A DNA stretch of 54,789 nucleotides from Oscillatoriales cyanobacterium PMM_0019 (GTDB taxonomy: Bacteria; Cyanobacteriota; Cyanobacteriia; Cyanobacteriales; CASBRB01). Position 1 is the stretch's first letter; each line of letters begins with the position of its first letter. The stretch is from the NCBI GenBank assembly GCA_949127975.1, contig CASBRB010000089.1, forward strand, positions 1-54,789. The letters are read 5' to 3'. The notes beneath the pieces were generated by a model. That model was not told the origin of the DNA. It worked only from the letters and a program-made list of their open reading frames with translations, and ran no database searches. Made by a program: the position numbers and the translations under genes. This document shows, piece after piece, positions 12,479 to 41,936 of this stretch.

Positions 12479-12557
12479 AGTACTGTAGCACTGCCTCTAT
12501 ATATAGCGGGTTCGTAGGGGCAAACCCCCTGTGTGTGCCCAGTGTCCGTAAGTTCTG
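12479..12557 (+). repeat. Degenerate SDR copy (CAGTACTGTAGCA-type end)
   Basis: Reads cagtactgtagcactgcctctatatatagcgggttcgtaggggcaaaccccctgtgtgtgcccagtgtccgtaagttctg. It has the same architecture as the other copies but with an internal deletion. Confidence 0.6.
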
Positions 12558-12612
12558 TAAAATATAGTAATATGGCAAATATTGCAGTTATTAGCAACTG
12601 GAGGTGAGAGCG

Positions 12613-12969: not shown

Positions 12970-13554
12970 TCAAGTTGCCCTCCTATCTTTCCCAAAAACT
13001 TCAGAAGCTTTTAAATTAAGTTCCCTAAATCCGGGAGATGGCAGTAAATCATCATTGCTAAAACTACCAACTTCTGTATAAGTATCGCCTGTAAGTTCTA
13101 GGATGAGAATGGTTTGAGTTTGGGGATCGACAATCCAATATTCGGGAATCCGACAATCTTGATATTGCGTTCTTTTGGCGATGTAGTCTCTATCTTTTTG
13201 TATATTTCCGGGACTAACTATTTCAATAACTAATAGAGGGGGTAACATTGAAAGGCGAATAGTGTTGCGCTTTGATAGTTGTTGAATATGTTCTTCTCGG
13301 ATGATGGTTAGATCGGGATAGCGGTTTTTGGGTTCGCCTCTGACTTCTAATTCTAGTCCTTGCGCCCTAACTCGATCGGTTCCTATAATTAAGGCAAAAA
13401 ATAAAAAAATTCGATTGGCAATTTGGATATTTAATCCTGATTCTGGAGGCATTTCGATCAATTCTCCGTTAAATAGTTCATAAAATTTTTCGGAATAGTC
13501 GTCGTATAGTAGATACTCTTCAAAAGTTTCAAATCGAGGTTTAACGGTTAACAT
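12970..13554 (-). CDS. Uma2 family (DUF820) endonuclease
   Basis: YELFNGELIEMPPES...PDLTII...PPLLVIEIVSPGN...RIPEYWIVDP is the typical Uma2 PD-(D/E)xK layout. I start it at the internal ATG (MLTVKPRF) so that it does not overlap the upstream gene. Confidence 0.85.
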   Translation of the reverse strand: MLTVKPRFETFEEYLLYDDYSEKFYELFNGELIEMPPESGLNIQIANRIFLFFALIIGTDRVRAQGLELEVRGEPKNRYPDLTIIREEHIQQLSKRNTIRLSMLPPLLVIEIVSPGNIQKDRDYIAKRTQYQDCRIPEYWIVDPQTQTILILELTGDTYTEVGSFSNDDLLPSPGFRELNLKASEVFGKDRRAT

Positions 13555-13585
13555 CAGATTTACTCCATGCAATGGGTTAGCTGTG

Positions 13586-15022: not shown

Positions 15023-15152
15023 ACCTAATTCCTCATTTGATATACTAATTATAGTGTAGTACTTCTGTAAAATACTAATTTACAAAACCAAGCTGAAAGG
15101 AACATCAAGCCCAGTACCACATTCTCCGCTGCAATGACGATGCCAGAAATAT

Positions 15153-15184
15153 TGTAGGTTGGGTTGAGGAACGAAACCCAACAT
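15153..15184 (+). repeat. ~33-bp dispersed repeat TGTAGGTTGGGTTGAGGAACGAAACCCAACAT
   Basis: Identical cores occur at 39438-39470, 42692-42724 and 42746-42778. The element is a hairpin: GTTGGGTT...AACCCAAC. Confidence 0.85.
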
Positions 15185-15265
15185 TAAGATTTGAAAACAT
15201 TGGATTGTACTTTTAAAATTCAGCCCATCGATTAGTATAATTTATCAGACTAAGTCAGAACTTAG

Positions 15266-15466
15266 TCTGACTGGGCATATATAGCAACCGCCAAGGCGGT
15301 TAAGTGCGTGATCCGCTCTTGTAGGGTGCGTTAATGAAATGTAACGCACCATCTATATGCTAATTTTCGGTGCGTTACGAGTCAAGCTAACACACCCTAC
15401 TCAAGGGCAACCACAGAGGGATTGCCCCTACAAACCGCTATATGTAGAGGCAGGACTACAGTACTG
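15266..15466 (-). repeat. Reverse-oriented SDR copy split by a nested ~120-bp insertion of a second repeat family
   Basis: ctgactgggcatatata ... gggcaaccacagagggattgcccctacaaaccgctatatgtagaggcag is interrupted by an element with GTAGGGTGCGTTA...TAACACACCCTAC inverted ends. Confidence 0.7.
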
Positions 15467-15493
15467 TAAGTATGAGAAAGCCGGTTTACCCGC

Positions 15494-17290
15494 CTATTCG
15501 ACTAAACCGCTAGGAATCTCACCAGTAGGTTCACTCAGAATCTCGCGGATAACAGCATTTTCAACTGCTAACTTTTTCTGAGCAATAAAATCAAGGACTT
15601 CCTTCTCACTCAAATTGTAACCTTCACGACTAACATATACAGCGTGGATAGCTAAAATATTTTTGATATCCTCAGTTGTAGGATTCACCCATTTACCGAA
15701 TTTTGAAGACAAAAATTGACTTAAAATCTCTTGAGATTGAGTTGCCTTGGAACTAATTTTTTTAGAACGAACTAAGCAGCCACGGCTTAAACCAAAAATT
15801 TTGTATGCAGTTAATCGCTTCAATCCAGCTAGAACACCCCTAGCATGAGAATATTGCAGAACAGATACTCCAATTTTGACTGTTTTACCGTTGGCTTTAC
15901 CCTTAAGTTTGAAGTCAATATAATCTTGGTTTTGGTTTTTAGGTTCAACTTCTTCGATGCCCTCGACTTTTACTGTTTCTATGGTTTCTCCAATTAGGCT
16001 AGAGAAGCTGAAGCGAAGAGCATCTGCAAGTGGCTGCTTATCGTCTAGCAATTTTTTTATAGACTTTTCAACAACTGTAAGCTCCTTAGTGAAAGCAGCT
16101 TCAACAGTATCAAGCGGTGGTGGCGGTGATGGCGGTGTAACTGTGAAATGCTCTGCACACCATTGCAGAACTTGTCTTACAGTCGGTTTTTCTTTATTCA
16201 GTTCTCTAAGCTTGTTTTCGTCAAAGGGATAGATACGATGATGTGGAACTAAATTTTTGGCTTTGTAAAACTCTTTGAGCCATAGGGCGACTAGCTCAAC
16301 AATAGTTTCACCCTCCATATGTTTCAAAGCAATTGGCTCTCTTGTTGCGGTGGAAAGTCGATAAAGAATGCCACCAGGAAGCGACTTAATTTTTCGACTC
16401 CATGTGTCCGGTAACATCATTGTTAACAAAACAACACCGCGACTGTTACTAGCTACATTAATACTGTTGAACAGATCTTTAACTAATTCAGCCACCACCT
16501 GTGCTTGCGTAAAACCAGCTTCGTTAAGGCTAGTTCCCTCTAGCTCATCAAAACATATCAGTACCGCTTTAATTTCATTCAGCAAACTCAATGTTTGCAG
16601 GAGAATTTCAAAGGCTTTTGCTTCTGTAAAATGTGGTTCGGGATTGGGCAAACCCAGTTCAGCAGCTTTGGCTTCAGATAGAGCATTTGCAGATAACCAT
16701 TTAATTGCATAGGGTGCATGCTCTTCGGAGAGTGTCCATAAAATAGCTCTGATAATATCCGGATCGATGTTGCCGTTATTTTTCAGAACTGTTGTTGTTA
16801 AGTTATCGATTAACTTGGGATTTTTACTCAAGGCAAAGGGAAATTTATTGGCAACCATCTCCCGAGGAGAAGCCTGGTTTTTTGAAAACCTATTTACCAG
16901 AGCTGTAGCTAGTTCTTGCCAATGATTTACCCCTTCTGCCCCATGCTGGTTAAGACTTTTTGACCAATTTTGTAAAAACTCGTGCTTAATCCGGTCTAAG
17001 TTACTCAACTTACTAGCGCTGGCATAAACAACTATAGTGTTGCCCTCAGTTTGCAGATGGTGGTACAGGCGGCGAATGATGTGGGTTTTGCCAACTCCTT
17101 GTTCTGCTGTTATAGTAATCGAGGTAACTTTGGCTTCACCAGAACCAACTTGTTTAATTGCCTGAATAATCTTGTCAGAAGCATGAGCATTTAATGTCGG
17201 CAAATCGAGATTTTTTTTTATTCCAAATGTCTGGAATTCTGACAGCGGCACCTCGATCAACAAAAGGGTTGTGACTTTTAATAGCAGCAT
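15494..17290 (-). CDS. P-loop NTPase, paralog B of the 18138-19991 gene (5' end displaced by an A9 frameshift; the true start is probably the ATG at 17327)
   Basis: Walker A AEQGVGKTH and Walker B LICFDELEG are present. I estimate about 55-60% identity to paralog A along the whole length. The upstream frame from 17327 encodes MTSKNASPIEELNAAIKSHNPFVDRGAAVRIPDIWNKK, which matches the N-terminus of paralog A. Confidence 0.75.
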   Translation of the reverse strand: MLLLKVTTLLLIEVPLSEFQTFGIKKNLDLPTLNAHASDKIIQAIKQVGSGEAKVTSITITAEQGVGKTHIIRRLYHHLQTEGNTIVVYASASKLSNLDRIKHEFLQNWSKSLNQHGAEGVNHWQELATALVNRFSKNQASPREMVANKFPFALSKNPKLIDNLTTTVLKNNGNIDPDIIRAILWTLSEEHAPYAIKWLSANALSEAKAAELGLPNPEPHFTEAKAFEILLQTLSLLNEIKAVLICFDELEGTSLNEAGFTQAQVVAELVKDLFNSINVASNSRGVVLLTMMLPDTWSRKIKSLPGGILYRLSTATREPIALKHMEGETIVELVALWLKEFYKAKNLVPHHRIYPFDENKLRELNKEKPTVRQVLQWCAEHFTVTPPSPPPPLDTVEAAFTKELTVVEKSIKKLLDDKQPLADALRFSFSSLIGETIETVKVEGIEEVEPKNQNQDYIDFKLKGKANGKTVKIGVSVLQYSHARGVLAGLKRLTAYKIFGLSRGCLVRSKKISSKATQSQEILSQFLSSKFGKWVNPTTEDIKNILAIHAVYVSREGYNLSEKEVLDFIAQKKLAVENAVIREILSEPTGEIPSGLVE

Positions 17291-28055: not shown

Positions 28056-28320
28056 AGTACTAGGGTGGGATTGCTAGCCCTGCCAACTCTAAAAAGCCCT
28101 CACCAAGGGCCCCTCTCCCAAATTGGGAGAGGGGAGTAAGAGTCGGATTTTTTTCTCTTTCTCCCCTTCTCCCTTGATGGGAGAAGGGGTTGGGGGATGA
28201 GGGTGATATTGAGAGAGTACTAGGGTGAGATTGCCCATATCCAGTGGGGCAACCACGGGGGGATTGCCCCTACAAAACCATTTCTAGGCATCATTCGATC
28301 GCCCAATCCTACCCTAGTAC
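28056..28320. repeat. Composite block of nested short repeats
   Basis: AGTACTAGGGTGGGATTGC (28056-28074) and its inverted copy (28302-28320), with a third copy at 28216-28234. These enclose the hairpin CCCCTCTCCCAAATTGGGAGAGGGG, the motif GGGAGAAGGGGTTGGGGGATGAGGGTGA, and an SDR core (GGGGCAACCACGGGGGGATTGCCCCTAC). Confidence 0.75.
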
Positions 28321-28906: not shown

Positions 28907-29968
28907 TTGAGACCTTTACACGGGGGGAATTTAGCCTGGGCCGCAGCCCAAGTAGGCTGTCCCCCTTCCCTTATCCTCGACTTTTCTGCGAGTATCAACC
29001 CGTTGGGACCTCCCCCATCGGCACTCGCCGCTATTGAGGCTAATCTAGGGGCTCTTGCCGCCTACCCCAACCCAGATTATTACCCGCTACGGGCAGCACT
29101 CAGTCAGGCACACCAAATCCCGCCTGATTGGATTCTGCCCGGAAACGGCTCTGCCGAGTTACTAACTTGGGCTGGGCGCGAGTTGTCGCAACTAGAGGTG
29201 ACGCTCTTAGTTACCCCAGCCTTTGGTGACTACTTGAGGGCACTCAGGACTTTTAACACCTGCGTCTTGGAGTGCCCTCTTAATTTAGAACCCAATAGGG
29301 AAGAGTCTTTGGTAATTGACAAAAAACCCAGGATAAAAAACCAGGGCCTACTAATCAATAATCCTCACAATCCCAGCGGTCGTATATTCCGGCGGGAGGA
29401 GATTATACCTTACCTGGACCAATTTGCTCTGGTAGTCGTAGATGAAGCTTTTATGGATTTTCTGCCCCCATCCAGGCAGCAAAGTCTCATCCCAGTGATA
29501 CAAAGTTATGAAAATTTAGTCATACTGCGATCGCTCACCAAATTCTACAGCTTACCAGGGCTGCGACTAGGTTATGCCATCTCTCACCCAGACAGACTGC
29601 GACGCTGGCAAATGTGGCGCGATCCTTGGCCGGTAAACATCTTAGCCGCTGCCTGTGGGATTGCCGCCGTGCAAGATACCAACTTTCAACAACTTTCTTG
29701 GAATTGGTTAGAACCGACTCGCAAACGGCTGTTTGAGCAGTTGGCGCTTCTTCCAGGCTTACAACCTTACCCTAGTGCAGCTAACTTTTTATTGGTGCAG
29801 TCGGAACCAGCTAGTTCAAAACTGCAACTCGAACTACTCAAACATAGTAAAATTTTGATCCGGGACTGCCTGAGCTTTCCAGAGTTGGGCGATCGTTATT
29901 TCCGGGTTGCTGTACGTACTCAAGCAGATAACCAGCGCTTATGGGAAGCTTTAGCTGAAATACTATAA
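28907..29968 (+). CDS. cobD: Threonine-phosphate decarboxylase (class I/II aminotransferase family)
   Basis: HGGNL...DFSASINPLGPP is the characteristic CobD start. The PLP-lysine region reads ILRSLTKFYSLPGLRLGY. TTG start. Confidence 0.75.
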   Translation: MRPLHGGNLAWAAAQVGCPPSLILDFSASINPLGPPPSALAAIEANLGALAAYPNPDYYPLRAALSQAHQIPPDWILPGNGSAELLTWAGRELSQLEVTLLVTPAFGDYLRALRTFNTCVLECPLNLEPNREESLVIDKKPRIKNQGLLINNPHNPSGRIFRREEIIPYLDQFALVVVDEAFMDFLPPSRQQSLIPVIQSYENLVILRSLTKFYSLPGLRLGYAISHPDRLRRWQMWRDPWPVNILAAACGIAAVQDTNFQQLSWNWLEPTRKRLFEQLALLPGLQPYPSAANFLLVQSEPASSKLQLELLKHSKILIRDCLSFPELGDRYFRVAVRTQADNQRLWEALAEIL

Positions 29969-29974
29969 TTTTAT

Positions 29975-30065
29975 CAGGACTTACGCACTGACTCTAAATA
30001 TAGCGGTCTGTAGGGGCAATCCCCCTGTGGTTGCCCCTATATATGCCCAGTCTGCGTAAGTCCTG
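29975..30065 (+). repeat. SDR copy
   Basis: caggacttacgcactgactctaaatatagcggtctgtaggggcaatccccctgtggttgcccctatatatgcccagtctgcgtaagtcctg. It begins 6 nt after the cobD stop. Confidence 0.85.
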
Positions 30066-30086
30066 TTTATAATAAACTAAAGAATC

Positions 30087-31541
30087 ATGGCAGTTGAATA
30101 CGATCTCGTCGTCATCGGAGGCAGCACTGCTGCTGTGTATGCCGCAGTTGCCGCCGCTCACCTCCAAGCCCGTGTCGCCCTAGTAGAACCCCACCAAGTC
30201 ATGAAAAATTGGTTGGGGACTGGGTTTATCCACAGCAAAGCTTTAAATCAGGTAGCGCGAGTTGCCCACCACCTGGGTGAAGCACATCAATTTGGAGTTT
30301 TCTGGGAAACAGAGTCAGATGCTCAGCCGCGATTTACCCAAGCTTGCGAGTGGGCTAATAGCGTTGTCTCTACCCTAGAAGATGTGCATTCCCCAGCTAT
30401 TTTGGCATCTTTGGGCATTGATTTCATTGCTGGGAACGGTGAATTTTGCCGCTTACCACACTTTGCCTTTGTTGTCAATAGCCGACATCTCAGAGCGCGT
30501 GCCTACCTGATAGCCACTGGCTCACGTTTAGTTATTCCAGAGATAGAAGGGCTGGCAGATATAGGTTATTTGGAACCAGCAGATATTTGGCAGCAGCCTG
30601 TAAGTCTAGAGTATTCCCACCCTTCCTGGGTAATAATTGGCGGTGGTTGTGTTGGTATTGAACTAGCTCAGACATTAGTGCGGCTGGGTGTCAATGTGAC
30701 GCTGGTAGTGAGCGATTCCCATATCCTACCTAAAGAAGATCCAGATGTGTCTCTTTTGCTACAAGCACAACTGGAAGCTGAGGGCGTCCGCGTGTGTACT
30801 CAAGCTGAGGTGAAGCAAGTAAAACGAATTGAGAACAAAAAGTGGGTTTTAGTTGGCAATAAAGCCATCGAAGCCGATGAAGTAATCTTAGCAACTTTCG
30901 GGCAGCCGAACATCGAAAATTTAAACTTAGAAGCAGTCGGGGTGAAGTTGAACCGAGCAGGCATTCAGCTAAACGAAAAACTGCAAACCACTAACCCCCG
31001 TATCTATGCCTGTGGAGATGTTTTCGGTGGTTATCAGTTTGCCCATATTGCCGATTATGAAGCTAGAATTGCTCTAAAGAATGCTTTGTTTTTACCGATA
31101 TTTAAAGTAGATTATCGCAGCATTCCTTGGGCGATATTTTCCGATCCGATGCTGGCACGGGTGGGACTGACGGAAGCTGAAGCCATGCGCCGTTATGGTA
31201 AAGAAGTTTTGGTGTTGCGGCAATATTTCAAGACGGTTAACAGAGCTGTGTTGATGGGGGAAACAACTGGTTTATGTAAAATTGTGGTGCGTCGTAACGG
31301 GGAAATTTTAGGAGCTTCTATAGTGGGACCGGAAGGTGGAGAGTTAATTCACATTCTAGCTCTAGCCATGCACCAGAGGTTGAAGGTGAGTGCGATCGCG
31401 CAACCTACCATCTCTCCCAGTTTATCAGAAATTATCTACCAAACCGCTGCCGAGTGGCATCGGCAACGCCTCAGCAGCAATACCCTACTCAAAGATTTAC
31501 TGGAAAGCTTTTTCAACCTGCGCCGCTCGTGGCGTTCTTAA
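30087..31541 (+). CDS. FAD/NAD(P)-dependent pyridine nucleotide-disulfide oxidoreductase family protein lacking the redox-active CxxxxC
   Basis: YDLVVIGGSTAAVYAA is the FAD dinucleotide fold and a second GGGxxG is present (IIGGGCVGIELA). The expected GTCxxxGCxPSK position reads GTGFIHSKAL. Confidence 0.8.
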   Translation: MAVEYDLVVIGGSTAAVYAAVAAAHLQARVALVEPHQVMKNWLGTGFIHSKALNQVARVAHHLGEAHQFGVFWETESDAQPRFTQACEWANSVVSTLEDVHSPAILASLGIDFIAGNGEFCRLPHFAFVVNSRHLRARAYLIATGSRLVIPEIEGLADIGYLEPADIWQQPVSLEYSHPSWVIIGGGCVGIELAQTLVRLGVNVTLVVSDSHILPKEDPDVSLLLQAQLEAEGVRVCTQAEVKQVKRIENKKWVLVGNKAIEADEVILATFGQPNIENLNLEAVGVKLNRAGIQLNEKLQTTNPRIYACGDVFGGYQFAHIADYEARIALKNALFLPIFKVDYRSIPWAIFSDPMLARVGLTEAEAMRRYGKEVLVLRQYFKTVNRAVLMGETTGLCKIVVRRNGEILGASIVGPEGGELIHILALAMHQRLKVSAIAQPTISPSLSEIIYQTAAEWHRQRLSSNTLLKDLLESFFNLRRSWRS

Positions 31542-31566: not shown

Positions 31567-33282
31567 ATGGAATTAAGGCAAGAAATATTTGATACTTATT
31601 GGAAATTTGCCGCTCGTCGCCAAGAGGTATTTTTTAACAGAATTAAAAACTTACCCCCGCCCTGGACAAGTGACCCGATTCTCAACGAGTATAAATTCTG
31701 CAATGCTTATCGAGCGAGCGATCGCGTTTCCCAATACCTAATAAAACATATCATCTACGACGCTAGACGCAGCCAGAATGAAGAAGAAGTTATTTTCAGA
31801 ATCTTACTATTTAAGATTTTTAACAAAATAGAGACTTGGGCATACTTAGAAAGTCGGCTAGGAGCGCCGATCGAACTGTCTAATTTTGATTTGGAGCTTT
31901 ATTCCAGCTTTTTGCAAGAGGCAATGGACAATGAGCAGGTAATTTATACCAGCGCCTATATGATGACTGGGGTAACAAAAGAATTTGGCTATAACAAGAA
32001 ACACCAGAATCATCTAGCTTTGATTAGCAAAATGGTATTAAAAGACCGGATATTAAATAAACTAAGCGCAGCCAAGAGTCTACAAGAAGTTTTTGTAATT
32101 CTGGTATCTTATCCCTTAATAGGCAATTTTCTAGCATATCAGTTAGCCACTGATATCAACTACAGTGAAGTAATAGACTTTGATGAAAATAGTTTTACTA
32201 TGGCGGGGCCTGGTGCGGAACGCGGTATCGGTAAATGTTTCCTAGATACAGGCGCTAAAAGTAACGCCGAAATTATATATTGGATGACGGAAAACCAAGA
32301 GCAAGAGTTTCAGCGTTTAGGGATAAATTTTCAATCCCTGTGGGGGCATCCACTTAAAGCTATAGACTGTCAAAATCTATTTTGTGAAGTAGATAAATAC
32401 TGCCGCGTGGCGGTGCCAGAATTAAAAAGTAATCGCAAGAGATTAAGATCGAGATTTAGTGCCACTACTCAACCAATTGAATATTTTTATCCGCCCAAAT
32501 GGAATATAAACGATAAAGTTAGGGAAACTTTAGCTGAACGATTGTCAACACAGGTACTCCCTCAACAGCAACCTATAGAGATACAAAGTAAAAAGAAAAT
32601 AGGGCATGAAACCATTCAGGAGTTGGAGTTGTTTGCTCAACTAACTGACTTTTCTTTTGCTCCACAAGTGGAAAGAAAAAATAAGGTTAAGAAAACTTCA
32701 ACGCCAAGATTGCCAATTGTGGATAAAACTCTTGAGGAGCCAGAAATAGAAATGAAAAAAGATGCCAAGACAGACTCAAATAAACTTTACCGCTATTGGC
32801 TCTTGCGGGAATGGAACCCTAATGCTCCACGAGTGGTTTTTGTGATGCTCAACCCAAGTGTCGCCGATGCCGATATAGACGATCCCACATTACGCAAATG
32901 TATTGGTTTTGCCAAGTCTTGGGGTTACGGTTCCCTAGAGTTGGTTAATTTGTTTGCCTACATTGCCACCGAACCTGATAACCTGCGTCAAGTAGAAGAT
33001 CCTGTAGGTTCAGATAATGACTCCTATCTTTTAAAGACGATAGAAAATGCCGAGAAAGTTATTCTCGCATGGGGCGATGAGGGCAGTAAGCGCCCCTGGC
33101 GCTATCGAAATCGATCCAAACATGTGCTAAAATTGATTGGTGAGAAATCATCTCTCTACTGCTTGGGGCTGACAGAGCATGGGCACCCACGCCACCCTCT
33201 GTATGTTGACTATAAAACAACCCCAGTTTCTTTTGAATTACCGCCCCTACAGCTAGAATTAAATTTTGGGATATTAGGTTAA
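31567..33282 (+). CDS. Fusion of a putative DNA base hypermodification protein (aGPT-pyrophosphorylase-like) N-domain with a C-terminal DUF1643 domain
   Basis: The N-domain IFDTYWKFAARRQEVFFNRIKNLPPPWTSDPILNEYKFCNAYRASDRVSQYLI is the family signature as I recall it. The C-domain is YRYWLLREW...VVFVMLNPSVADADIDDPTLRKCIGFAKSWGYGSLELVNLFAY...GHPRHPLY, the DUF1643 signature. I start it at the ATG at 31567, because the ORF-track start at 31390 overlaps the previous gene. Confidence 0.55.
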   Translation: MELRQEIFDTYWKFAARRQEVFFNRIKNLPPPWTSDPILNEYKFCNAYRASDRVSQYLIKHIIYDARRSQNEEEVIFRILLFKIFNKIETWAYLESRLGAPIELSNFDLELYSSFLQEAMDNEQVIYTSAYMMTGVTKEFGYNKKHQNHLALISKMVLKDRILNKLSAAKSLQEVFVILVSYPLIGNFLAYQLATDINYSEVIDFDENSFTMAGPGAERGIGKCFLDTGAKSNAEIIYWMTENQEQEFQRLGINFQSLWGHPLKAIDCQNLFCEVDKYCRVAVPELKSNRKRLRSRFSATTQPIEYFYPPKWNINDKVRETLAERLSTQVLPQQQPIEIQSKKKIGHETIQELELFAQLTDFSFAPQVERKNKVKKTSTPRLPIVDKTLEEPEIEMKKDAKTDSNKLYRYWLLREWNPNAPRVVFVMLNPSVADADIDDPTLRKCIGFAKSWGYGSLELVNLFAYIATEPDNLRQVEDPVGSDNDSYLLKTIENAEKVILAWGDEGSKRPWRYRNRSKHVLKLIGEKSSLYCLGLTEHGHPRHPLYVDYKTTPVSFELPPLQLELNFGILG

Positions 33283-33319
33283 TATAGCGATCGTAGTTCT
33301 TTTAGTACTTGCTGAAGTT

Positions 33320-34300
33320 ATGCAGCCGCGAGAGGAAATTTTTGACACATACTGGAAATTTGCCGCACAACGGCAAGAAATATTTTTTAACAGAATTAAA
33401 AATGAGCCTCAGCCTTGGAGTATCGATCCGATTATCGATAAATATAAGTTTTGTAACGCTTATCGAGCGAGCGATCGCGTTTCCCAGTATCTCATAAAAA
33501 ACGTCATTTATCAAGGTAGCCAGAATAAAGAGGAAGTTCTTTTTAGGATATTGCTATTTAAGATATTTAACAAAATAGAAACCTGGCAATATTTAGAAAG
33601 CAAGCTGGGAACAGTAGAACTAAAAAGCTTCAATTTTGATGAATACTCCGCTTTATTGGCATCTGCGACTGATTCTGGGCTGGCTATATACACCAGTGCA
33701 TATACCTCATGTCCCACTAGAGCCTTTGGCTATCCAAGAAAGCACCAGAATCATCTAGCGTTGATCCGCAAAATGGTACAATCAGATGAGCTAATTCAAA
33801 AGATAGATAACGCTACCAGTCTGAGAAAAGTTTTTCTAGCTCTGCTTGATTATCCCCTAATAGGCAAATTTATGGCTTATCAGCTAGCCACAGATATCAA
33901 CTATAGTGAGATTATCGAGTGTGAAGAAAATGATTTTACTGCGGCGGGACCTGGTGCTGAACGTGGCATTAGCAAATGTTTCACTAATACCAAAGGTAAA
34001 AGTGATGAGTATGTTATCAAGTGGATGGTAGATAAACAACAAGAAGAGTTTCACCGTTTAGGAATAAATTTTCAATCTCTTTGGGGACGTCCCTTAAAAG
34101 CTATAGACTGTCAAAATTTATTTTGTGAAGTAGATAAATACTGCCGCGTAGCGTTTCCCGGCTTGAAAAGTAATCGCACTAGAATCAAAGCGAGGTTTAA
34201 GGCAAATCTGCAACCGATCGAATATTTCTATCCTCCGAAATGGGGGATAAATGATAAAGTTAAAGAAACTTTAGCTCAAAATACTTACTCCCAAAATTAG
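33320..34300 (+). CDS. Putative DNA base hypermodification protein (aGPT-pyrophosphorylase-like), stand-alone paralog
   Basis: 326 aa, about 65% identical to residues 1-320 of the preceding gene. Stretches are near-identical at the DNA level, for example ttttgtgaagtagataaatactgccgcgt. Confidence 0.55.
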   Translation: MQPREEIFDTYWKFAAQRQEIFFNRIKNEPQPWSIDPIIDKYKFCNAYRASDRVSQYLIKNVIYQGSQNKEEVLFRILLFKIFNKIETWQYLESKLGTVELKSFNFDEYSALLASATDSGLAIYTSAYTSCPTRAFGYPRKHQNHLALIRKMVQSDELIQKIDNATSLRKVFLALLDYPLIGKFMAYQLATDINYSEIIECEENDFTAAGPGAERGISKCFTNTKGKSDEYVIKWMVDKQQEEFHRLGINFQSLWGRPLKAIDCQNLFCEVDKYCRVAFPGLKSNRTRIKARFKANLQPIEYFYPPKWGINDKVKETLAQNTYSQN

Positions 34301-34509: not shown

Positions 34510-34887
34510 TTAACCTAATGTCAGTACTCCTGCTGGTAAATCAACTACTAAACGATTTGTTTTTAGCCATTGGACACCTATAATAATTTCATGAATTTCC
34601 TCTCCTCCTAAAGCATAAATATTTACTTCTTGACCATCAAAGATTACTTTTCCTGCATATACATTGAAGTCAGTTGTGCCATTTGCTGTTATCATCGCGA
34701 AGGTATTCTCAGTAAATGACCAATCTAAGCTTTCTGCATCTTGCTTATCTATTGCTAACCATCCAGTAAATCCAGTATCTAAGAGTGCATTAACACAGAT
34801 AATATCTCCATCAGCACCAATTAAGCCAATCTCAAAATAAAGCTGTGCTTTATCATCAACCTCTCCTACTATCATATTCTTCCACAA
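34510..34887 (-). CDS. Retropepsin-like (clan AA) aspartic protease
   Basis: ALLDTGFTGWLAI carries the DTG active-site motif, and the size (~120 aa) fits. An alternative start at 34875 overlaps the upstream stop in an ATGA arrangement. Confidence 0.7.
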   Translation of the reverse strand: MWKNMIVGEVDDKAQLYFEIGLIGADGDIICVNALLDTGFTGWLAIDKQDAESLDWSFTENTFAMITANGTTDFNVYAGKVIFDGQEVNIYALGGEEIHEIIIGVQWLKTNRLVVDLPAGVLTLG

Positions 34888-35192
34888 GCTCCAGTTTCAT
34901 TAAGTCGTAAGATGAGCCTTCGTCTATCTGGATATTTTTCTTTAGCCTTTACGATCGCTATTTCTTGATTTTTATCGATGAAATATTCACCACTTACTGG
35001 CTCAATCGCAATAAACCAGTTATAATGTTCTTCAATTAGCTCTGGCTTAATTAGATCGAATATTACTCGACATCGCTTACTGAAATTTTCATCTTCTAAT
35101 CTCCGTCTTTCTTTTTCTTCAGGACTTATCTGACGTTCTGGAAATAGTCTACCTCGACGACGTGGCGTTTGATTATCCGATAAACGTGTCAT
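34872..35192 (-). CDS. Small protein, DUF5678-like partner of the aspartic protease
   Basis: HYNWFIAIEPVSGEYFIDKNQEIAIVKAKEKYPDRR resembles the DUF5678 pattern as I remember it. I chose the ATG at 35192, which has GAGGGAG upstream. Confidence 0.45.
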   Translation of the reverse strand: MTRLSDNQTPRRRGRLFPERQISPEEKERRRLEDENFSKRCRVIFDLIKPELIEEHYNWFIAIEPVSGEYFIDKNQEIAIVKAKEKYPDRRRLILRLNETGACGRI

Positions 35193-35251
35193 CCAATTGC
35201 TCCCTCTCAAAAATTTGCGACAGTTAAATTAATTATAGCACATAGAGTTCT

Positions 35252-35827: not shown

Positions 35828-35938
35828 ATAATAAGTTAATAGGGGGAGTTGTCAGAAACAATGAATATTAGTATAATCCAAAATAACGACTTTTTGGCAG
35901 ATGGAAAATGTTCAATATCGAATCCTTAGATTTTTACC

Positions 35939-37465
35939 ATGACTGAAACCTTGTTTAGACCTATCCCAAGAAGAAACCTGCAATATGTTTATGCGCCCAA
36001 GTGTAAACCAAATCAATTAATTTGCGGGCAAGGACAAACAGCGCTCGTTACTGGCTGGACTTTAAAAGAGGCAGTATCTAAACACCTCCAGCCAGAAGAA
36101 TTTGCAGCGATCGGGCATCTCTATAGCCCAACCAGAGGAATTAGTTTTTTAATTAGGAATTTAATCGCTAACCCTCACGTTCGCTTTCTAGTGGCTTTAA
36201 TCGCTACTAAAGAAGATCGCAATGCTGGTGGGTGTAAATGTTTATTGGATTTTTTTCGCTATGGATTCAAAGAGGGAACAACGGATTCTGGGCGAAAATG
36301 CTGGATAATCCTGTCGGAAGTCCCAGGCTATATAGACTTGGAAATTCCAATAGACGTATTAGAAACCTTGAGGACTCATATCCTATGTGAAGAAACTACA
36401 TCAGTTGCTGAGGCAGTAAAGATAACAAAACTTTTTGCTCGAGGAGAAGCAATGCCACCTTGGGGGGAACCGCTTGAATTTGCCATCCCTGAAATAACTC
36501 CAACAATCTTACCAGGAACTAGATATGGGCATAGAATAGAAGGTAAAACGATCGCGGAGACTTGGGTAAAAATCATTCATCGCATTAAAACGACTGGCAC
36601 AATTAGACCGACTACCTATGATGGGCGGTGGCAAGAGCTAATTGACCTTATGGCGGTAGTCACGGATGAACCAGATGGTTTCTTTTTCCCACAACCTAAT
36701 TATTTGCCGATCGAGCGCTCATTCATCGAGCAGTATCTCGATCAGATCTTGGTAGATACTCCCTATAAAGAAGGGGTCAAGTATACTTACGCCCAGCGTT
36801 TGCGATCGTGGTTTGGGTGCGATCAAATAGAACAGGTTATTAAAAAATTGACTGGTGACATTGATTCAGCTAGTGCAGTTATGTCACTCTGGGATGCCAA
36901 AGACCATGATTGGGATGGGGGCAGCCCCTGTCTGAACCATATTTGGATCAGAATAGTCGATGGCGAAATGTCATTAACCGCCACTTTTCGCAGTAACGAT
37001 ATGTTCTCGGCTTGGCCAGCTAACGCAATGGGGCTCCGAGCTTTGCAGCAGCACATCCGGGACGAGATCTCTAATCGTTCCAATCGCGCCCTGCGGTTAG
37101 GACCGATGATTACCATAAGCCAGTCGGCGCATATTTATGATGATACATGGGAAAGTGCCGATCGGATTATCGAGCAGCAGTATTTTAAAAATTGCAAAAG
37201 TAAAGACTATAACGATCCTTGTGGAAATTTTTTAATTGAGGTTGACGGGGAAAATATTGTAGTTAAACAGACTACCTCTGGTAGCGGCGAGGTTGTAGCG
37301 TCTTATGCTGGGAAAGATCCACTGAAATTACTTAAGAAAATTTGTGATACTTCTCCAGCATTACAGGCGGAACACGCTGGCTACTTAGGCATTGAGCTAC
37401 AGACGGCTGTAGCTTGCATACAAAATGGGGGTACATATATCCAAGATAGAGGTTGTTGTTTTTAA
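35939..37465 (+). CDS. Thymidylate synthase-family protein with an MtrA-like N-domain and a DUF4346-like C-domain
   Basis: TS core: YAQRLRSW...DQIEQVIKKL...AVMSLWDAKDH...SPCLNHIWIRIVDGEMSLTATFRSNDMFSAWPANAMGL. The Cys nucleophile and the RSND motif are present. N-terminus: GISFLIRNLIANPHVRFLV. C-terminus: DPCGNFLIEVD...HAGYLGIELQTA...YIQD. Confidence 0.7.
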   Translation: MTETLFRPIPRRNLQYVYAPKCKPNQLICGQGQTALVTGWTLKEAVSKHLQPEEFAAIGHLYSPTRGISFLIRNLIANPHVRFLVALIATKEDRNAGGCKCLLDFFRYGFKEGTTDSGRKCWIILSEVPGYIDLEIPIDVLETLRTHILCEETTSVAEAVKITKLFARGEAMPPWGEPLEFAIPEITPTILPGTRYGHRIEGKTIAETWVKIIHRIKTTGTIRPTTYDGRWQELIDLMAVVTDEPDGFFFPQPNYLPIERSFIEQYLDQILVDTPYKEGVKYTYAQRLRSWFGCDQIEQVIKKLTGDIDSASAVMSLWDAKDHDWDGGSPCLNHIWIRIVDGEMSLTATFRSNDMFSAWPANAMGLRALQQHIRDEISNRSNRALRLGPMITISQSAHIYDDTWESADRIIEQQYFKNCKSKDYNDPCGNFLIEVDGENIVVKQTTSGSGEVVASYAGKDPLKLLKKICDTSPALQAEHAGYLGIELQTAVACIQNGGTYIQDRGCCF

Positions 37466-37532
37466 TAGTATTTGCTATTCTGAAACATACCGTTAACAGG
37501 GGAGTTGTCAGAAACACCTAATGTTAGTATAA

Positions 37533-37621
37533 CAGGACTTACGCACTGCCTCCATATATAGGGTTCGTAGGGCAATCCCCCTGCGGTTGCCTCTATATGT
37601 GCCCAGCGTGCGTAAGTCCTG
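37533..37621 (+). repeat. SDR copy between the two TS-like genes
   Basis: caggacttacgcactgcctccatatatagggttcgtagggcaatccccctgcggttgcctctatatgtgcccagcgtgcgtaagtcctg. Confidence 0.85.
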
Positions 37622-37632
37622 TATAATATAAA

Positions 37633-39339
37633 ATGACTAGCTTTAGGCAGGGTAAAATGTTTAAAAATGTTACTTATGCGTTTAGAGAAGGGCTAAGAAA
37701 AATCTTGCAAGAAGGAGAGGTAATTGCAGTGCGATCGCATGAAACCAAGGAAGTGCGATCACATCTAATTAAAATTTCCTCTCCCCTAGAGCGGGTTTAT
37801 CTTATTCCTCACCGAAATAACAACATTTTCGCTCAAATTGCCGAAACGCTGTGGATGATTGCCGGACGCAGTGACATGGCTTTTTTATCACATTACCTGC
37901 CCCGTGCCGTTGATTTTTCCGATGATGGCAAAGTGTGGAGAGGTGCTTATGGTAGTAGGCTGAGAAACTGGCAAGGTATAGATCAAATTGAAGAAGTAGC
38001 GCGGCTTCTCCGTCAAGATCCTAACAGCCGTCGTGCTGTAATGGTGATTTTCGATCCGGCACAAGATTATCTAGACAGTAAAGACATCCCTTGCAACAAT
38101 TGGCTACATTTTCTGATTCGCGATGGGCGCTTGCACCTGAATGTATCTATTCGCTCTAACGATATCTGGTGGGGATTTTCAGGGATTAATACTTTTGAAT
38201 GGAGCGTGCTGCATGAGATGATGGCTTATTGGACGCGATCTAAAGTAGGAGAGTATAGTCACTTTGCTAGTTCTTTCCACTTATACGAACGCCATTACCA
38301 GCCTGCTGAAAAAATAATTGCTACCTCTCAGGATAAAACCTTATATGACTTCGGATTTACTAACCCGCCATTTAGCATCCCATTTGAAGAGTTTGACGAA
38401 GCAATGGTGCGATGGTTTGCCATAGAAGATAAAATGCGTCAGGGTGAGACAAACCTGAGGCAGGAAATCAATAATTTTGATGATAGCTTTCTCAGAAACA
38501 GCCTAGAGATGTTGTATATCTATAATCGCTATCTGCTGGGAGCTGAGGGGGAAGAGATTGCCCAGCTTATAGAAGAGTTGCCGCCTAATGATTTTAAGAT
38601 TGGGGCGATCGAGTATTTTTCTCGTAAGTTAAAAAATAGAGAGTTGGTAAAACTCCAGGATAAAGAGAGAGAATATTTCCAGTATTTCTGGGGAGCGGAT
38701 GTAGCTGATAATTTATCTGTTACAGTACCCGGTAAATCCGTCGTCACCTTTTCATTTATTTTTGCTAAATTAAGCATACTCCACTATAAGAAAAGCCTCG
38801 TCTATAAAGACAGTTGGAAGAAGCACGGCGAGTTGCTGGGAGTTTTTGGCAATATTGCACGAAAGTACGATCGGATAGAAGTAATCATGAAGGATAAAGT
38901 TAAGCCAACTTCTGATGAATCTCTACTGGATACTGTAGCAGATATGGCTGTTTATTTAACTAAGTATATGACCTATCTAGCAGAACATTACCAAACTATC
39001 TTTAAGGAGTTTATCGGGCAATATCCTTCAGTGGAGCCAATTGAACATTACTGGGATAATCAAGGATTTGAGTCTGTAGTGAAAATCCTGATTAGGAGAT
39101 ATGACAATTCTGGGGAGTGGGAGCAGATTTCTAACTACGGCGATTGCTTTGCTGCCCTGAGCAAGAATTATAAAGTACTTGAAGATATCCTGATTAATGG
39201 TGACTGGCGCAGCAGCGATCCGCGAAAATGTTCATTTGCCGCTGATTTAGCTATTAGTGCAATGCATTTTCTGGTGCTGGCGTCACAAAAAGAACCGGAG
39301 AAGTTCCAGAAACTCTTAAGGTATATAGAAATGCTTTAG
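37633..39339 (+). CDS. Thymidylate synthase-family protein fused to a C-terminal all-alpha MazG/DUF1599-like domain
   Basis: TS core: ETLWMIAGRSD...YGSRLRNWQGIDQIEEVARLLRQDPNSRRAVMVIFDPAQD...IPCNNWLHFLIRDGRLHLNVSIRSNDIWWGFSGINTFEW. C-terminus: YKDSWKKHGELLGVFGNIARKYDRIEVI...ESLLDTVADMAVYLTKY. Confidence 0.7.
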   Translation: MTSFRQGKMFKNVTYAFREGLRKILQEGEVIAVRSHETKEVRSHLIKISSPLERVYLIPHRNNNIFAQIAETLWMIAGRSDMAFLSHYLPRAVDFSDDGKVWRGAYGSRLRNWQGIDQIEEVARLLRQDPNSRRAVMVIFDPAQDYLDSKDIPCNNWLHFLIRDGRLHLNVSIRSNDIWWGFSGINTFEWSVLHEMMAYWTRSKVGEYSHFASSFHLYERHYQPAEKIIATSQDKTLYDFGFTNPPFSIPFEEFDEAMVRWFAIEDKMRQGETNLRQEINNFDDSFLRNSLEMLYIYNRYLLGAEGEEIAQLIEELPPNDFKIGAIEYFSRKLKNRELVKLQDKEREYFQYFWGADVADNLSVTVPGKSVVTFSFIFAKLSILHYKKSLVYKDSWKKHGELLGVFGNIARKYDRIEVIMKDKVKPTSDESLLDTVADMAVYLTKYMTYLAEHYQTIFKEFIGQYPSVEPIEHYWDNQGFESVVKILIRRYDNSGEWEQISNYGDCFAALSKNYKVLEDILINGDWRSSDPRKCSFAADLAISAMHFLVLASQKEPEKFQKLLRYIEML

Positions 39340-39348
39340 ATTACTCAG

Positions 39349-39420
39349 GTAGAGACAGCGGTTGGTAGGGGCAATCCCCCCGTGGTTGCCCCTATATATG
39401 CCCAGTCTGCTACAGTACTG
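39349..39420 (+). repeat. SDR variant copy
   Basis: gtagagacagcggttggtaggggcaatccccccgtggttgcccctatatatgcccagtctgctacagtactg. Confidence 0.7.
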
Positions 39421-39470: not shown

Positions 39471-39531
39471 CTTCAGTACTTTAGCACCTTGACAGGGCTA
39501 CCTTATATATGCGCAGTCTGCTACAGTACTG

Positions 39532-39747
39532 AAGGACTAAAGTCCTCACTACGAACCTGTAAGGACTTTAGTCCTCACTACGAACCTGTAAGGACTTTAG
39601 TCCTCACTACGAGCCTGTAAGGACTTTAGTCCTCACTACGAACCTGTAAGGACTAAAGTCCTCACTACGAACCTGTAAGGACTTTAGTCCTCACTACGAG
39701 CCTGTAAGGACTAAAGTCCTCACTACGAGCCTGTAAGGACTAAAGTT
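39532..39747. repeat. Tandem array of 7.4 copies of a 29-bp unit (AAGGACTWWAGTCCTCACTACGARCCTGT)
   Basis: Units start at 39532, 39561, 39590, 39619, 39648, 39677, 39706 and 39735. There are no spacers. The last partial unit overlaps the desB stop codon (39740-39742). Confidence 0.9.
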
Positions 39748-40810
39748 CTTTTTTCGATTTGTAGTAAACTTTTCCTCCTGCATCCGGAACAAAATGGCAA
39801 CTGATGTAAGCATTCCAAAAGCCTTGCCAAATTGGCTGGCTAGATATTCGGTAGTAGTCTCCCAAAATGGGTTTTATTGCCTCATTAGCCGCTAACAAAT
39901 GATAGTGAGGAATGCTCAGGAAGATGTGGTGAACTACATGAGTACCAATATTGTGGTGAATGCGATTCAGCAACCCATAATCTTGGTCTATAGTAGAAAG
40001 GGCACCCTTTAGAAAATACCAATCTTTGCCTCGATACCAGGGAATCTCAGGGGTTGTGTGATGCAGAAATGTTACTAAATCGAGCAATACCACAAAAACT
40101 ACATAGGGGCCGAGATAATACTTCAGGAGAAATATCCAGCCATATTCATAGGTGAGCCAGCTTAATAACCCAACCATCAAAATGCAGCACGTTGTGCTGG
40201 TGATGATATCCCATTTCTCTGAAGGCTTAAAAAGTGGACTCTCTGGCATAAAGTGAGAGCCTTTCTTACCGGGCGAACGTTTAAACAAATACAAGGGATA
40301 GGCAATCAGCAAAAGATGGAACCGAAACAGCTTTTCATACCAGGGCATACTCCGATACTTGCTTTCTGTAACGGGATACCAACTTTCATCAGTGTCGATA
40401 TTTGCGGTGTTTTGGTGATGAGTTCTGTGGCTGATGCGCCAGCCATGAAAGGGAACAAGTATGGGAGTATGAGCTAGATGACCAATCAAATTATTCAGCC
40501 ATTTCTGGCGGGAAAAGGAACCGTGCCCGCAATCATGCCCCACGACAAACAGTGCCCAAAACATGGTACCCTGCATCAGCCAAAATATTGGCCATAACCA
40601 CCAGTAATCTAGGAAGTAAGCCCCTCCATAGAGGATACCGATTACAGTTATATCCAGGAAAAAGTAAAAAAGTGATTTCCTATTTTGTGGGTTAAAGCAA
40701 TAGGAAGGAATGGCGGATTTTAATTGAGCAAGAGTGAAGGGAAGTTCTGCCCCAACATCAGAAACTTCTTCTTGTGGAGGAGCAGTTAAATTGTCACACG
40801 TAGATTGCAT
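39740..40810 (-). CDS. desB: Acyl-lipid omega-3 (delta-15-type) fatty acid desaturase
   Basis: The three His boxes are HDCGHGSF, HRTHHQN and HVVHH. LPFTLAQLKSAIPSYCF and HDCGHGSFS resemble the omega-3 (DesB/FAD7) class rather than the DesA class. Confidence 0.7.
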   Translation of the reverse strand: MQSTCDNLTAPPQEEVSDVGAELPFTLAQLKSAIPSYCFNPQNRKSLFYFFLDITVIGILYGGAYFLDYWWLWPIFWLMQGTMFWALFVVGHDCGHGSFSRQKWLNNLIGHLAHTPILVPFHGWRISHRTHHQNTANIDTDESWYPVTESKYRSMPWYEKLFRFHLLLIAYPLYLFKRSPGKKGSHFMPESPLFKPSEKWDIITSTTCCILMVGLLSWLTYEYGWIFLLKYYLGPYVVFVVLLDLVTFLHHTTPEIPWYRGKDWYFLKGALSTIDQDYGLLNRIHHNIGTHVVHHIFLSIPHYHLLAANEAIKPILGDYYRISSQPIWQGFWNAYISCHFVPDAGGKVYYKSKKEL

Positions 40811-40877: not shown

Positions 40878-41936
40878 CTAAATTTTTGGCAAAATAACTT
40901 TTTCCGCTTGATCTTGATACTTGCCCTTTCGTTGCTCGTAAGTAGTCTGACAAGATTCTCCTTCTAAGAAAAGCAATTGACAAACTCCCTCCGAAGCGTA
41001 TATTCTAGCATCAGCAGGAGAAGAATTAGAAAATTCTAGCGTTAAGTGTCCCCGCCATCCCGCTTCGGCAGGAGTTATGTTAGCAATAATGCCGCAATTG
41101 TGGACAAAAACTCCGGCAGCGATCGCAAAATTTCCCGCTTCAGGAACCGTTAAGCAATAAACATCATGAATGCCAGGAATATCCTGGACTGACGCAACTT
41201 TATGGTTTTTGACCCCTGTTAGCGGCTGATATACTGTTTCATAACCCCGTGTATTTTCCCGATATAGCGGCATCAAAGAATCATTTGGTCTTAAATCATC
41301 CGCAGGTACCATGCTACCATGCCTTTTCATAAAAAGATGGTCTGGGGTACAAAAAATCGATTCCTCATTATCCAAAGTCACTTTCACCAAGGAATCTCGA
41401 CCAATATAACGAGGGTTTGACAAAAGTGTTATAATTACCAGTCCATTTTTATCTATGCTGTATCCCCAAAAATTCTCCCCTTGCTGGGCCCGCTGGGCCA
41501 TCTCCTCTAAGGTGGGAGAACTGCCATCAACTAAGGCTACACGAGTATCCCCTCGAAAGCAGCGAGCATAAGTAGATTTACCCAGACAAATTACAGTAAT
41601 ATTCTCCGGTATATTTAGATGCTCTAGCGCCACCCCAAGCCCGTAGGATCTTCCCGGCAAGATAAAAAATTCTCCATCGCGATCGCGCTGAAGTTCTCCA
41701 ACCTCCAAATTTTCTGGATTAAACCGCTTGGGATTAACAATTGTACCTGGGATATGTCTAAAAATCCTAAATTCTTTTGGTGAAAGTCTGATATCGTACC
41801 CGTAACTCGAGCATCCAAATGACAACACGGGTATGATATTTGCCTCAAATTCCATACTCCTAACAAGTTTCGGATCGAATGGCTGAATCATTCCTGATTC
41901 AGCCATCTTAGCAATCCAAATATCATTTTTTATCAT
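40878..41936 (-). CDS. dcd: dCTP deaminase interrupted by a mini-intein
   Basis: The exteins are MIKNDIWI...SYGYDIRL...GKSTYAR | CGIIANITPAEAGWRGHLTLEFSNSS. These align with E. coli Dcd GRSSLARLGLMVH...DPGWSGCIVLEFYN. The intein lies between them. Confidence 0.9.
   Translation of the reverse strand: MIKNDIWIAKMAESGMIQPFDPKLVRSMEFEANIIPVLSFGCSSYGYDIRLSPKEFRIFRHIPGTIVNPKRFNPENLEVGELQRDRDGEFFILPGRSYGLGVALEHLNIPENITVICLGKSTYARCFRGDTRVALVDGSSPTLEEMAQRAQQGENFWGYSIDKNGLVIITLLSNPRYIGRDSLVKVTLDNEESIFCTPDHLFMKRHGSMVPADDLRPNDSLMPLYRENTRGYETVYQPLTGVKNHKVASVQDIPGIHDVYCLTVPEAGNFAIAAGVFVHNCGIIANITPAEAGWRGHLTLEFSNSSPADARIYASEGVCQLLFLEGESCQTTYEQRKGKYQDQAEKVILPKI
41097..41561 (-). other. Mini-intein (155 aa, no homing-endonuclease domain) in dcd
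   Basis: Begins CFRGDTRVALVDG (block A, Cys1). Block B is IFCTPDHLF (TxxH). Ends GVFVHN, followed by the +1 Cys (CGII). Confidence 0.85.

Follow-up and report, generated by a model that had tools for sequence, protein, structure and literature searches.

Known systems and the present locus

The only characterized proteins with the helical domain HMUDK_hel (PF18723, the renamed aGPT-Pplase clade 1, an older name that persists in some sources) are 5-hydroxymethyl-deoxyuridine (5-hmdU) DNA kinases, reported to act on polymeric DNA: gp186 of phage SP10 is listed as such a kinase, and gp54 of phage M6 and its homologs phosphorylate 5-hmdU in polymeric DNA (PMC8989533). A second described setting is DS-4 ('NTTI'), an anti-phage system of E. 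coli validated in the DefensePredictor study, which combines a thymidylate synthase (TS), a kinase, HMUDK_hel, TIR and Nmad2; related systems with aGPT-Pplase, MazG-C, dUTPase and uracil-DNA glycosylase (UDG) domains were predicted, without validation, in the same work (PMC13092281). Here we analyse a stretch of 54,789 nucleotides (nt) from Oscillatoriales cyanobacterium PMM_0019 (assembly GCA_949127975.1, contig CASBRB010000089.1, positions 1 to 54,789), which we call the window. Its gene 1 encodes a 571-residue protein in which HMUDK_hel is fused to DUF1643, and the following gene 2 encodes HMUDK_hel alone (Table 1). DUF1643 is a widespread and functionally uncharacterized family, and the natural fusion together with its neighbourhood offers a first concrete and testable lead to its substrate, which would be a C5-substituted uracil in DNA.

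The cluster around genes 1 and 2 shares with the phage thymidine-hypermodification pathways (SP10 gp186 and the M6-like clade 1 proteins; PMC8989533) the PF18723 helical family, a dUMP-hydroxymethylase homolog and a P-loop kinase. The hydroxymethylase homolog, TS2, is 34% identical to SP10 gp188, annotated as 'dUMP hydroxymethylase' (E 3e-47), and 37% identical to the thymidylate synthase of phage Sonora. Unlike the phage pathways, the cluster is chromosomal and sits in a cyanobacterium, its helical copies lack a fused kinase domain (Pfam finds none in gene 1 or gene 2) and one of them is fused to DUF1643 instead; moreover, no clade 2 amino-acid:DNA transferase, pyridoxal-phosphate enzyme or radical-SAM enzyme was found in a scan of 28.9-42.5 kb. 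Of the five component families of DS-4, two have homologs in the window, namely the TS (33% identical to TS2, E 2e-35) and HMUDK_hel (26% identical to gene 2, E 1e-29), and both systems hold a TS-like protein, a small P-loop kinase and HMUDK_hel in one cluster. In contrast, DS-4 carries TIR and Nmad2 and has no DUF1643, its kinase is without detectable similarity to that of the window, and the window cluster has two helical paralogs and adjoins housekeeping pyrimidine genes. The third comparison is with a cassette of HMUDK_hel, DUF1643 and a MazG/MazG_C protein in Nostoc sp. PCC 7107, whose first two genes correspond to gene 1 in one open reading frame (ORF) and whose helical protein belongs to the sister group of the gene 1 domain; the window instead has the TS2 and kinase module and a second, Oscillatoria-type helical paralog.

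The explanation that we favour, tentatively and short of an even chance, is that the cluster represents a chromosomal front end of the phage hydroxymethyluracil pathway, most likely within a nucleotide-centred anti-phage conflict system. TS2 would convert dUMP to hydroxymethyl-dUMP, the 191-residue P-loop kinase would phosphorylate a nucleotide or a DNA base, and the resulting base in DNA would be handled by the two helical-domain paralogs, whose divergence is ancient. We infer that the helical domain may bind DNA and present a C5-substituted uracil (5-hmdU or its phosphate), and that DUF1643 may be the effector on the same presented base, most likely by a hydrolytic, glycosylase-like reaction, with phosphate displacement as an alternative. 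An anti-phage role is proposed because of the analogy with DS-4. The fusion links DUF1643 with the phage enzymes that produce 5-hydroxymethyluracil in DNA and decorate it. What the analysis shows directly is the architecture, the conserved neighbourhood, the age of the paralogs, the homologies and the purifying selection; the DNA substrate, the hydroxymethyluracil chemistry, the DUF1643 activity and the defence role are proposals.

Gene 1 is a genuine fusion of two neighbouring genes

The helical domains of gene 1 (E 8e-110, 367 bits) and gene 2 (E 3e-108, 362 bits) both lie far above the Pfam cut-off of 25 and cover positions 2-280 of the 281-position PF18723 profile, and gene 2 has no other Pfam match. 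The C-terminal part of gene 1 matches DUF1643 (PF07799) over the full profile (1-134 of 134; E 2e-48, 164 bits against a gathering score of 22.5) as well as phrog_3230 (E 5e-56), and contains the motifs VFVMLNPSVADADIDDPTLRKC, LVNLFAY and GHPRHPLY. Between the two domains lies a linker with 26% Lys plus Glu and 34% charged residues. The ATG at 31567 is taken as the correct start of gene 1 because its homologs align from residue 1. A preliminary description made from the DNA letters had proposed an 'aGPT-Pplase-like' helical domain of about 320 residues joined through a Lys/Glu-rich linker to a complete DUF1643, had quoted the DUF1643 motifs, and had read the next gene as the helical domain alone; this outline of the architecture agrees with the domain matches in each of these points, the label corresponding to the former name of PF18723.

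An assembly or frameshift artefact, which the same description had considered, is ruled out for this strain pair: the 571-residue ORF is intact in the window and in a second, independent public assembly (GCA_038226575.1), the two differing at 34 positions over 21.7 kb (99.84% identity). Two contigs carry the exact protein, and a third carries a variant with 99.6% identity. Gene 1 is a true fusion of two neighbouring and functionally linked genes, and their unfused counterparts are found in related cyanobacteria. In Nostoc sp. PCC 7107, a 391-residue HMUDK_hel gene, a 43-nt spacer and a 179-residue DUF1643 gene are followed by a gene for a MazG/MazG_C protein, and separate neighbouring HMUDK_hel and DUF1643 genes also occur in Heteroscytonema, Oscillatoria princeps and others.

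The junction retains traces of both parents. The 391-residue stand-alone proteins consist of the helical domain and a tail of about 65 residues, and the gene 1 linker matches that tail, from which it derives. Met396 (ATG at 32752) aligns with the start of stand-alone DUF1643 proteins (EMKKDAKTDS in the window, MKKDARIDS in protein P0121). The fusion is a read-through of two adjacent genes, since the linker corresponds to the old tail and Met396 to the old DUF1643 start. A GAGGAG element lies 12 nt upstream of the Met396 codon, which would make a separate DUF1643 product from this internal start possible.

Besides gene 1, the survey of domain architectures returned one fusion-like case, on metagenome contig L088, where a 214-residue protein joins the very end of a helical domain to DUF1643 and is followed by the start of another helical-domain gene. 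The gene of the 214-residue protein lies directly downstream of an oxidoreductase gene, which is the chromosomal position of the cluster in the window, and the arrangement is a syntenic relic of a fusion of the gene 1 type. No other full HMUDK_hel-DUF1643 fusion occurred among the best 150 of 19,447 representative matches (1.84 billion proteins) or among the 120 nearest DUF1643 proteins, a domain search of 80 genome loci gave no further one, and a metagenome scan returned only two distant relatives.

Where the second assembly departs from the window, the changes are strongly clustered (29723-29963, 30934-30989 and 32322-32333), with 4-7 of them within 12-240 nt, which suggests recombination patches or multi-nucleotide events. 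The differences at 32322-32333 were considered as a conversion in the window and rejected, the derived change lying in the other assembly.

The two helical-domain genes are old paralogs

The preliminary description regarded gene 2 as freshly duplicated, pointing to long near-identical DNA stretches, and suggested recent duplication or gene conversion. Comparison of the copies contradicts a recent duplication and leaves room at most for a short conversion patch. The helical domains of genes 1 and 2 share 68% identity in protein, 72% in DNA and 55% at third codon positions, and the Nei-Gojobori estimates are 1.40 synonymous (dS) and 0.22 nonsynonymous (dN) substitutions per site, with a dN/dS of 0.16. 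The longest exact run is 31 nt (32378 versus 34119) and sits inside KAIDCQNLFCEVDKYCRVA, the most conserved motif of the helical-domain family. Each paralog has closer relatives elsewhere: the gene 1 domain is 75% identical to Nostocales orthologs, and gene 2 is closest to proteins of O. princeps (locus L004, 71%) and of an uncultured cyanobacterium (locus L005, 70%). In 200 neighbour-joining bootstraps, the two domains were never sisters (0/200), whereas gene 1 grouped with the Nostocales clade in 189 and gene 2 with the L004 and L005 proteins in 163. Gene 2 is thus an old, anciently diverged paralog, and a recent duplication is excluded.

A few observations would suit a more recent exchange. 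Over 63 nt around the KAIDCQNLFCEVDKYCRVA motif, a stretch in which orthologs are unusually alike as well, the paralogs differ at 5 positions, as against 9-17 for orthologs from other genera, and their identity at synonymous sites (0.65) is slightly above that between orthologs of different genera (0.50-0.62). However, no clear tract of conversion emerges from the site patterns, with 73 sites favouring gene 1 with gene 2 and 105 favouring gene 1 with Nostocales, so that gene conversion amounts at most to a short patch around this motif. The combined proposal that a recent tandem duplication or gene conversion made the stand-alone copy and that DUF1643 is a UDG-fold base-excision module is, given the dS of about 1.4, the bootstrap results and the DUF1643 comparisons below, highly improbable.

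Both paralogs are under purifying selection, as reflected in the dN/dS, and all family-invariant residues of the helical domain are kept in both. These results bear on the possibility that the locus is a decaying prophage or mobile-element remnant without current function, the fusion being an accidental read-through. Both domain families are indeed common in phages (494 HMUDK_hel and 154 DUF1643 phage records), the cluster has a low GC content (0.38-0.41, as against 0.48-0.50 in the flanks), and truncated forms exist, namely the relic in L088 and a partial DUF1643 in L004. Against such decay stand the low dN/dS, the invariant residues kept in both domains, the ORF intact in two strains and the lack of phage structural genes, an integrase or a tRNA near the cluster, and we regard a functionless remnant as very unlikely.

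The helical domain and its possible substrate

Gene 2 aligns with residues 311-596 of SP10 gp186 at 25% identity, and the helical domain corresponds to the C-terminal half of that protein. Identity to the clade 1 protein of phage Sonora is 23%; in this M6-like phage, the helical domain is encoded by a separate gene beside those of a kinase, an Nmad protein and a TS homolog. No relevant match came from PDB sequence searches, for which both domains and the DUF1643 profile served as queries. The AlphaFold model of gene 2 is of high quality (pLDDT 95.5), and its top PDB matches are all helix-hairpin-helix (HhH) glycosylases (3-methyladenine glycosidase, MutYH, Ogg and AlkA) plus QNG1, at levels below significance (E at least 0.34, TM 0.3-0.5). 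An HhH DNA-glycosylase-like fold had been predicted for the helical domain by Iyer et al. (2013), as quoted in PMC8989533. In the FCE(V/T)DKY motif of the family, the Glu is invariant and the Cys nearly so, and in clade 2 aGPT-Pplase a Cys and a nearby Glu are catalytic (PMC8989533). An hhalign comparison of the helical-domain alignment with a clade 2 protein placed the conserved Cys of the two families in one column, but it was not significant and does not demonstrate that these residues are equivalent.

The preliminary description had suggested that the fusion, as it couples two base-directed modules, acts on DNA rather than on free nucleotides. The helical half of this argument gains support from the 5-hmdU DNA kinases, of which this domain forms one half; the DUF1643 half does not, as described below. 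These kinases, together with helical-domain fusions to DNA methyltransferases (MT-A70 and N6_N4_Mtase), speak against a pathway of free nucleotides or small molecules. In such a pathway, a free 5-hydroxymethylpyrimidine or modified nucleotide would be made by the TS-like hydroxymethylase together with an N-glycosidase-type enzyme and a kinase, the helical domain and DUF1643 acting on mononucleotides. It would resemble bacimethrin and mildiomycin biosynthesis. It would be consistent with the place of QNG1 (DUF2419), an enzyme of the same fold that works on a free nucleotide, near the top of the structural matches to the helical domain, with cluster partners that are only of the nucleotide-metabolism type, without nuclease or polymerase, and with a 191-residue kinase that is nearer to deoxynucleoside monophosphate (dNMP) kinases than to DNA kinases. 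On balance, we consider the free-nucleotide alternative unlikely.

Helical-domain relatives are also encoded in nine Nodularia phage records, and cyanophages of hosts with the chromosomal cassette may modify their own thymidine.

DUF1643 and its resemblance to uracil-DNA glycosylases

The DUF1643 part of gene 1 appears complete also at the level of single residues. All 15 invariant columns of a 50-sequence DUF1643 alignment are kept, and the invariant residues that are retained include R16, Y17, W23, D46, T48, C52, N68, F70, W109, G110 and H150 (numbering of alignment A2). Its AlphaFold model (pLDDT 86.7) shows an alpha/beta domain with an N-terminal hairpin.

A UDG-like fold had been proposed for DUF1643, and neither structure nor profile comparison bears this out. 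Foldseek searches of the PDB and the viral library BFVD returned phage DUF1643 proteins (TM 0.78) and otherwise only weak alpha/beta hydrolase and Toprim matches, the best PDB match having a TM of 0.41. No UDG was among the best 50 PDB matches, and one phage UDG stood at rank 49 of BFVD (TM 0.36). The probabilities given by hhalign against Ung, Mug and an 8-sequence alignment of family-1 (viral) UDGs were at most 1%, with shallow profiles (Neff 2.5-3.1), and a relaxed Pfam scan of 50 DUF1643 proteins was without any UDG family. What remains is a resemblance of four motifs in equivalent places of the topology. DUF1643 is near Mug in size, and in its alpha/beta layout four conserved motifs stand at successive strand ends and read like those of the UDG superfamily (Ung, Mug/TDG, SMUG1): LNPS as against GQDPY/GINPG, VNLF as against LLLN, AWG as against LWG, and GHPRHPL as against HPSPLS. 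Locally, hhalign aligned DUF1643 best at motif A in the case of Mug and at the LWG motif in that of Ung. Unlike the UDGs, DUF1643 has an extra N-terminal beta hairpin with an invariant R-Y and W, and it lacks any significant structural or profile match to the superfamily. We treat a UDG-like nature of DUF1643 as no more than a lead.

Genomic context adds to this lead. DUF1643 adjoins the UDG inhibitor SAUGI in staphylococcal cassette chromosome (SCC) elements, and thymidine-hypermodifying phages have an active UDG fused to their DNA polymerase; together with the UDG-like motifs, these associations hint at a uracil-related role. Besides phages and SCC elements, the family occurs in Bacillales and cyanobacteria. 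The DUF1643 loci in Paenibacillus and in Pseudomonas phage Itty13 show no link to the helical domain.

At two Lysinibacillus loci (L091 and L092, 8001-14393), genes for thymidylate kinase and thymidylate synthase are found at distances of 0.5 kb and 5 kb, respectively, from a close DUF1643 homolog, without a helical-domain gene.

Conserved neighbourhood and the possible role of the cluster

The functional coupling of the two domains, which the preliminary description had deduced from the fusion, is supported by their neighbourhood in other genomes. We examined 80 loci from species-representative genomes encoding relatives of gene 2, the ORFs of which were searched with the cluster proteins. 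DUF1643 was found within the fetched flanks of 12 of the 27 cyanobacterial HMUDK_hel loci, compared with 1 of the 53 others, and the fusion present in two assemblies likewise speaks for the coupling. Across the 80 loci, the helical domain nearly always comes with a kinase, either as an N-terminally fused thymidylate-kinase-like domain or as MazG_C, which has been described as a predicted kinase (PMC13092281), and it is also accompanied by a TS-like protein or a MazG pyrophosphatase. The usual setting of the bacterial relatives is thus a fused thymidylate-kinase-like domain or an adjoining MazG_C, near TS-like genes; neither MazG nor MazG_C is present anywhere in the window.

The two closest loci mirror the arrangement in the window. 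The order in O. princeps (L004) is aminotransferase, oxidoreductase, (partial DUF1643, P-type ATPase), DUF1643, helical domain, TS2 ortholog, dUTPase and dCMP deaminase; in L005 it is DUF1643, helical domain, two histidine kinases, 191-residue kinase ortholog and TS2 ortholog. The TS2 orthologs adjoining these helical-domain genes are 70% (L004) and 65% (L005) identical to TS2, and in L005 the kinase ortholog adjoins the TS2 ortholog. In Nostocales, DUF1643 is preceded by an 'A-type' helical gene, and in the Oscillatoria-type loci it is followed by a 'B-type' one; the window has both, the upstream one being fused. The clusters of the window, O. princeps and L088 occupy the same chromosomal position, with aminotransferase and pyridine-nucleotide oxidoreductase genes upstream in O. 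princeps. A phage-type hydroxymethyl-dUMP module thus stands at a conserved chromosomal position beside a housekeeping thymidylate synthase in cyanobacteria, which raises the question of whether modified thymine serves cyanobacteria in defence or as a part of their own DNA.

A self-directed role deserves attention here, although we hold it to be rather unlikely. The cluster and the Nostocales triad of HMUDK_hel, DUF1643 and MazG/MazG_C would then install a thymine-derived modification in the cell's own DNA, or would serve the sanitation and repair of 5-hydroxymethyluracil and uracil. If repair is the purpose, MazG would clean the dNTP pool while DUF1643 and the helical domain would remove or process the base in DNA. 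The 391-residue helical-domain protein is conserved across many Nostocales genera, in Nostoc PCC 7107 the surroundings of the locus are housekeeping genes and no defence island, and the shared chromosomal position of the window, O. princeps and L088 clusters is consistent with such a role. So are the adjoining pyrimidine genes, namely TS1 and dCTP deaminase in the window and dUTPase and dCMP deaminase in L004, and the copy of the TS1 promoter-like element that precedes TS2. On the other hand, hypermodified thymine in cyanobacterial DNA was not found in the literature open to search, the homologous DS-4 acts as an anti-phage defence, the family is patchy across phyla with variable modules, as is typical of conflict systems, and the GC content of the cluster is below that of its flanks.

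The favoured explanation itself has to contend with several findings that weigh against it. The 191-residue P-loop protein may act as a (hydroxymethyl-)dNMP kinase or may supply the kinase that the helical domains lack, yet it matches neither of the 5-HMUDK kinase families in Pfam (PF18748 and PF18747), reaches only E 0.15 with Ploopntkinase3, and gives no alignment to the SP10, Sonora or DS-4 kinases. PADLOC models had zero matches on the cluster, and clade-2 amino-acid:DNA transferase, TIR and Nmad2 were absent from the Pfam-scanned proteins of 28.9-42.5 kb. M6 gp55, by inference from the Sonora gene order the counterpart stand-alone helical protein, was dispensable in the lysate reconstitution of the M6 pathway (PMC8989533). 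The HhH matches of gene 2 are below significance, and DUF1643 has no UDG match by structure or profile. Finally, the cluster is syntenic in several cyanobacteria, adjoins housekeeping pyrimidine genes and has a promoter-like element common to TS2 and TS1, which would suit a stably kept function of the chromosome better than a mobile defence island.

A broader proposal would bring these elements together as a vertically inherited chromosomal pathway of filamentous cyanobacteria, in which the helical domain and DUF1643, with either the TS2 and kinase module or MazG/MazG_C, would put 5-hydroxymethyluracil or a phosphorylated or further derivatized form into own or invading DNA, and DUF1643 would be a previously unrecognized class of DNA-base-processing enzyme. 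In this wide form, the proposal is speculative and decidedly improbable; if true, the same enzyme class would also be at work in staphylococcal SCC elements and many phages.

Other features of the region

The coordinates of the main features are collected in Table 1.

Table 1. Features of the HMUDK_hel-DUF1643 region (positions in the window)
Feature	Position	Strand	Basis
Gene 1, HMUDK_hel + linker + DUF1643 fusion protein, 571 residues	31567..33282	+	Pfam matches
Gene 1 HMUDK_hel domain, residues 6-287	31582..32427	+	PF18723; 'A' ortholog group with Nostocales 391-residue proteins
Gene 1 linker, residues 323-408	32533..32790	+	Tail comparison with L002 and L006 proteins; composition
Gene 1 DUF1643 domain, residues 409-545	32791..33201	+	PF07799; phrog_3230; AlphaFold model
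Gene 2, stand-alone HMUDK_hel, 326 residues	33320..34300	+	Pfam; 'B' ortholog group with O. princeps (L004) and uncultured cyanobacterium (L005)
Clan-AA aspartic-protease-like protein (125 residues) and 112-residue protein, overlapping	34510..35210	-	TIGR03698 E 3e-11
P-loop kinase-like protein, 191 residues	35252..35827	-	AAA_28 E 2e-5; phrog_2107 'thymidylate kinase' E 1.4e-7
34-nt element, best promoter-like site of the region (TTGTCA-17-TATAAT)	35843..35876	+	Upstream of TS1; repeat family D9
TS1, thymidylate synthase with C-terminal DUF4346 pterin-binding domain	35939..37465	+	Pfam
TS2, phage-type dUMP-hydroxymethylase homolog, residues 1-340 plus C-terminal about 230 residues	37633..39339	+	Identity to SP10 gp188

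TS1 consists of an MtrA-like N-terminus, the TS core and DUF4346, and many cyanobacterial genera have homologs of it with 65-71% identity. TS1 appears to be the housekeeping thymidylate synthase of the phylum, and as such a conserved cyanobacterial enzyme it was rejected as a member of the cluster. A second copy of the 34-nt promoter-like element of TS1 precedes TS2 (37499-37532, 88% identity), which suggests that the two genes may be co-regulated. Between gene 2 and the kinase gene, the protease-like gene pair has the lowest GC content of the region (0.35-0.375), and no counterpart was detected in the L004 and L005 clusters; the pair is probably an unrelated insertion.

The C-terminal part of TS2, of about 230 residues (38653-39336, + strand), has no Pfam match and is conserved in the L004 and L005 orthologs. 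In L005, paralogous genes for two hybrid histidine kinases (Cache sensor, HisKA, HATPase and receiver) are inserted at 11221-16799, between the helical-domain gene and the kinase and TS2 pair. In the window, the dCTP deaminase gene (40878-41936, - strand) is split by an intein (Intein_splicing, residues 134-280, with N- and C-terminal splicing motifs). About nine tandem copies of a 20-nt palindrome, GTAAGGACTTTAGTCCTCAC, with a period of 29 nt, lie at 39503-39778 between TS2 and a fatty-acid desaturase gene. A small palindromic dispersed repeat, GGGGCAATCCCCC..GTGGTTGCCCC, flanks several of the cluster genes and occupies intergenic positions at 28246-28285, 29961-30079, 37519-37622 and 39350-39420.

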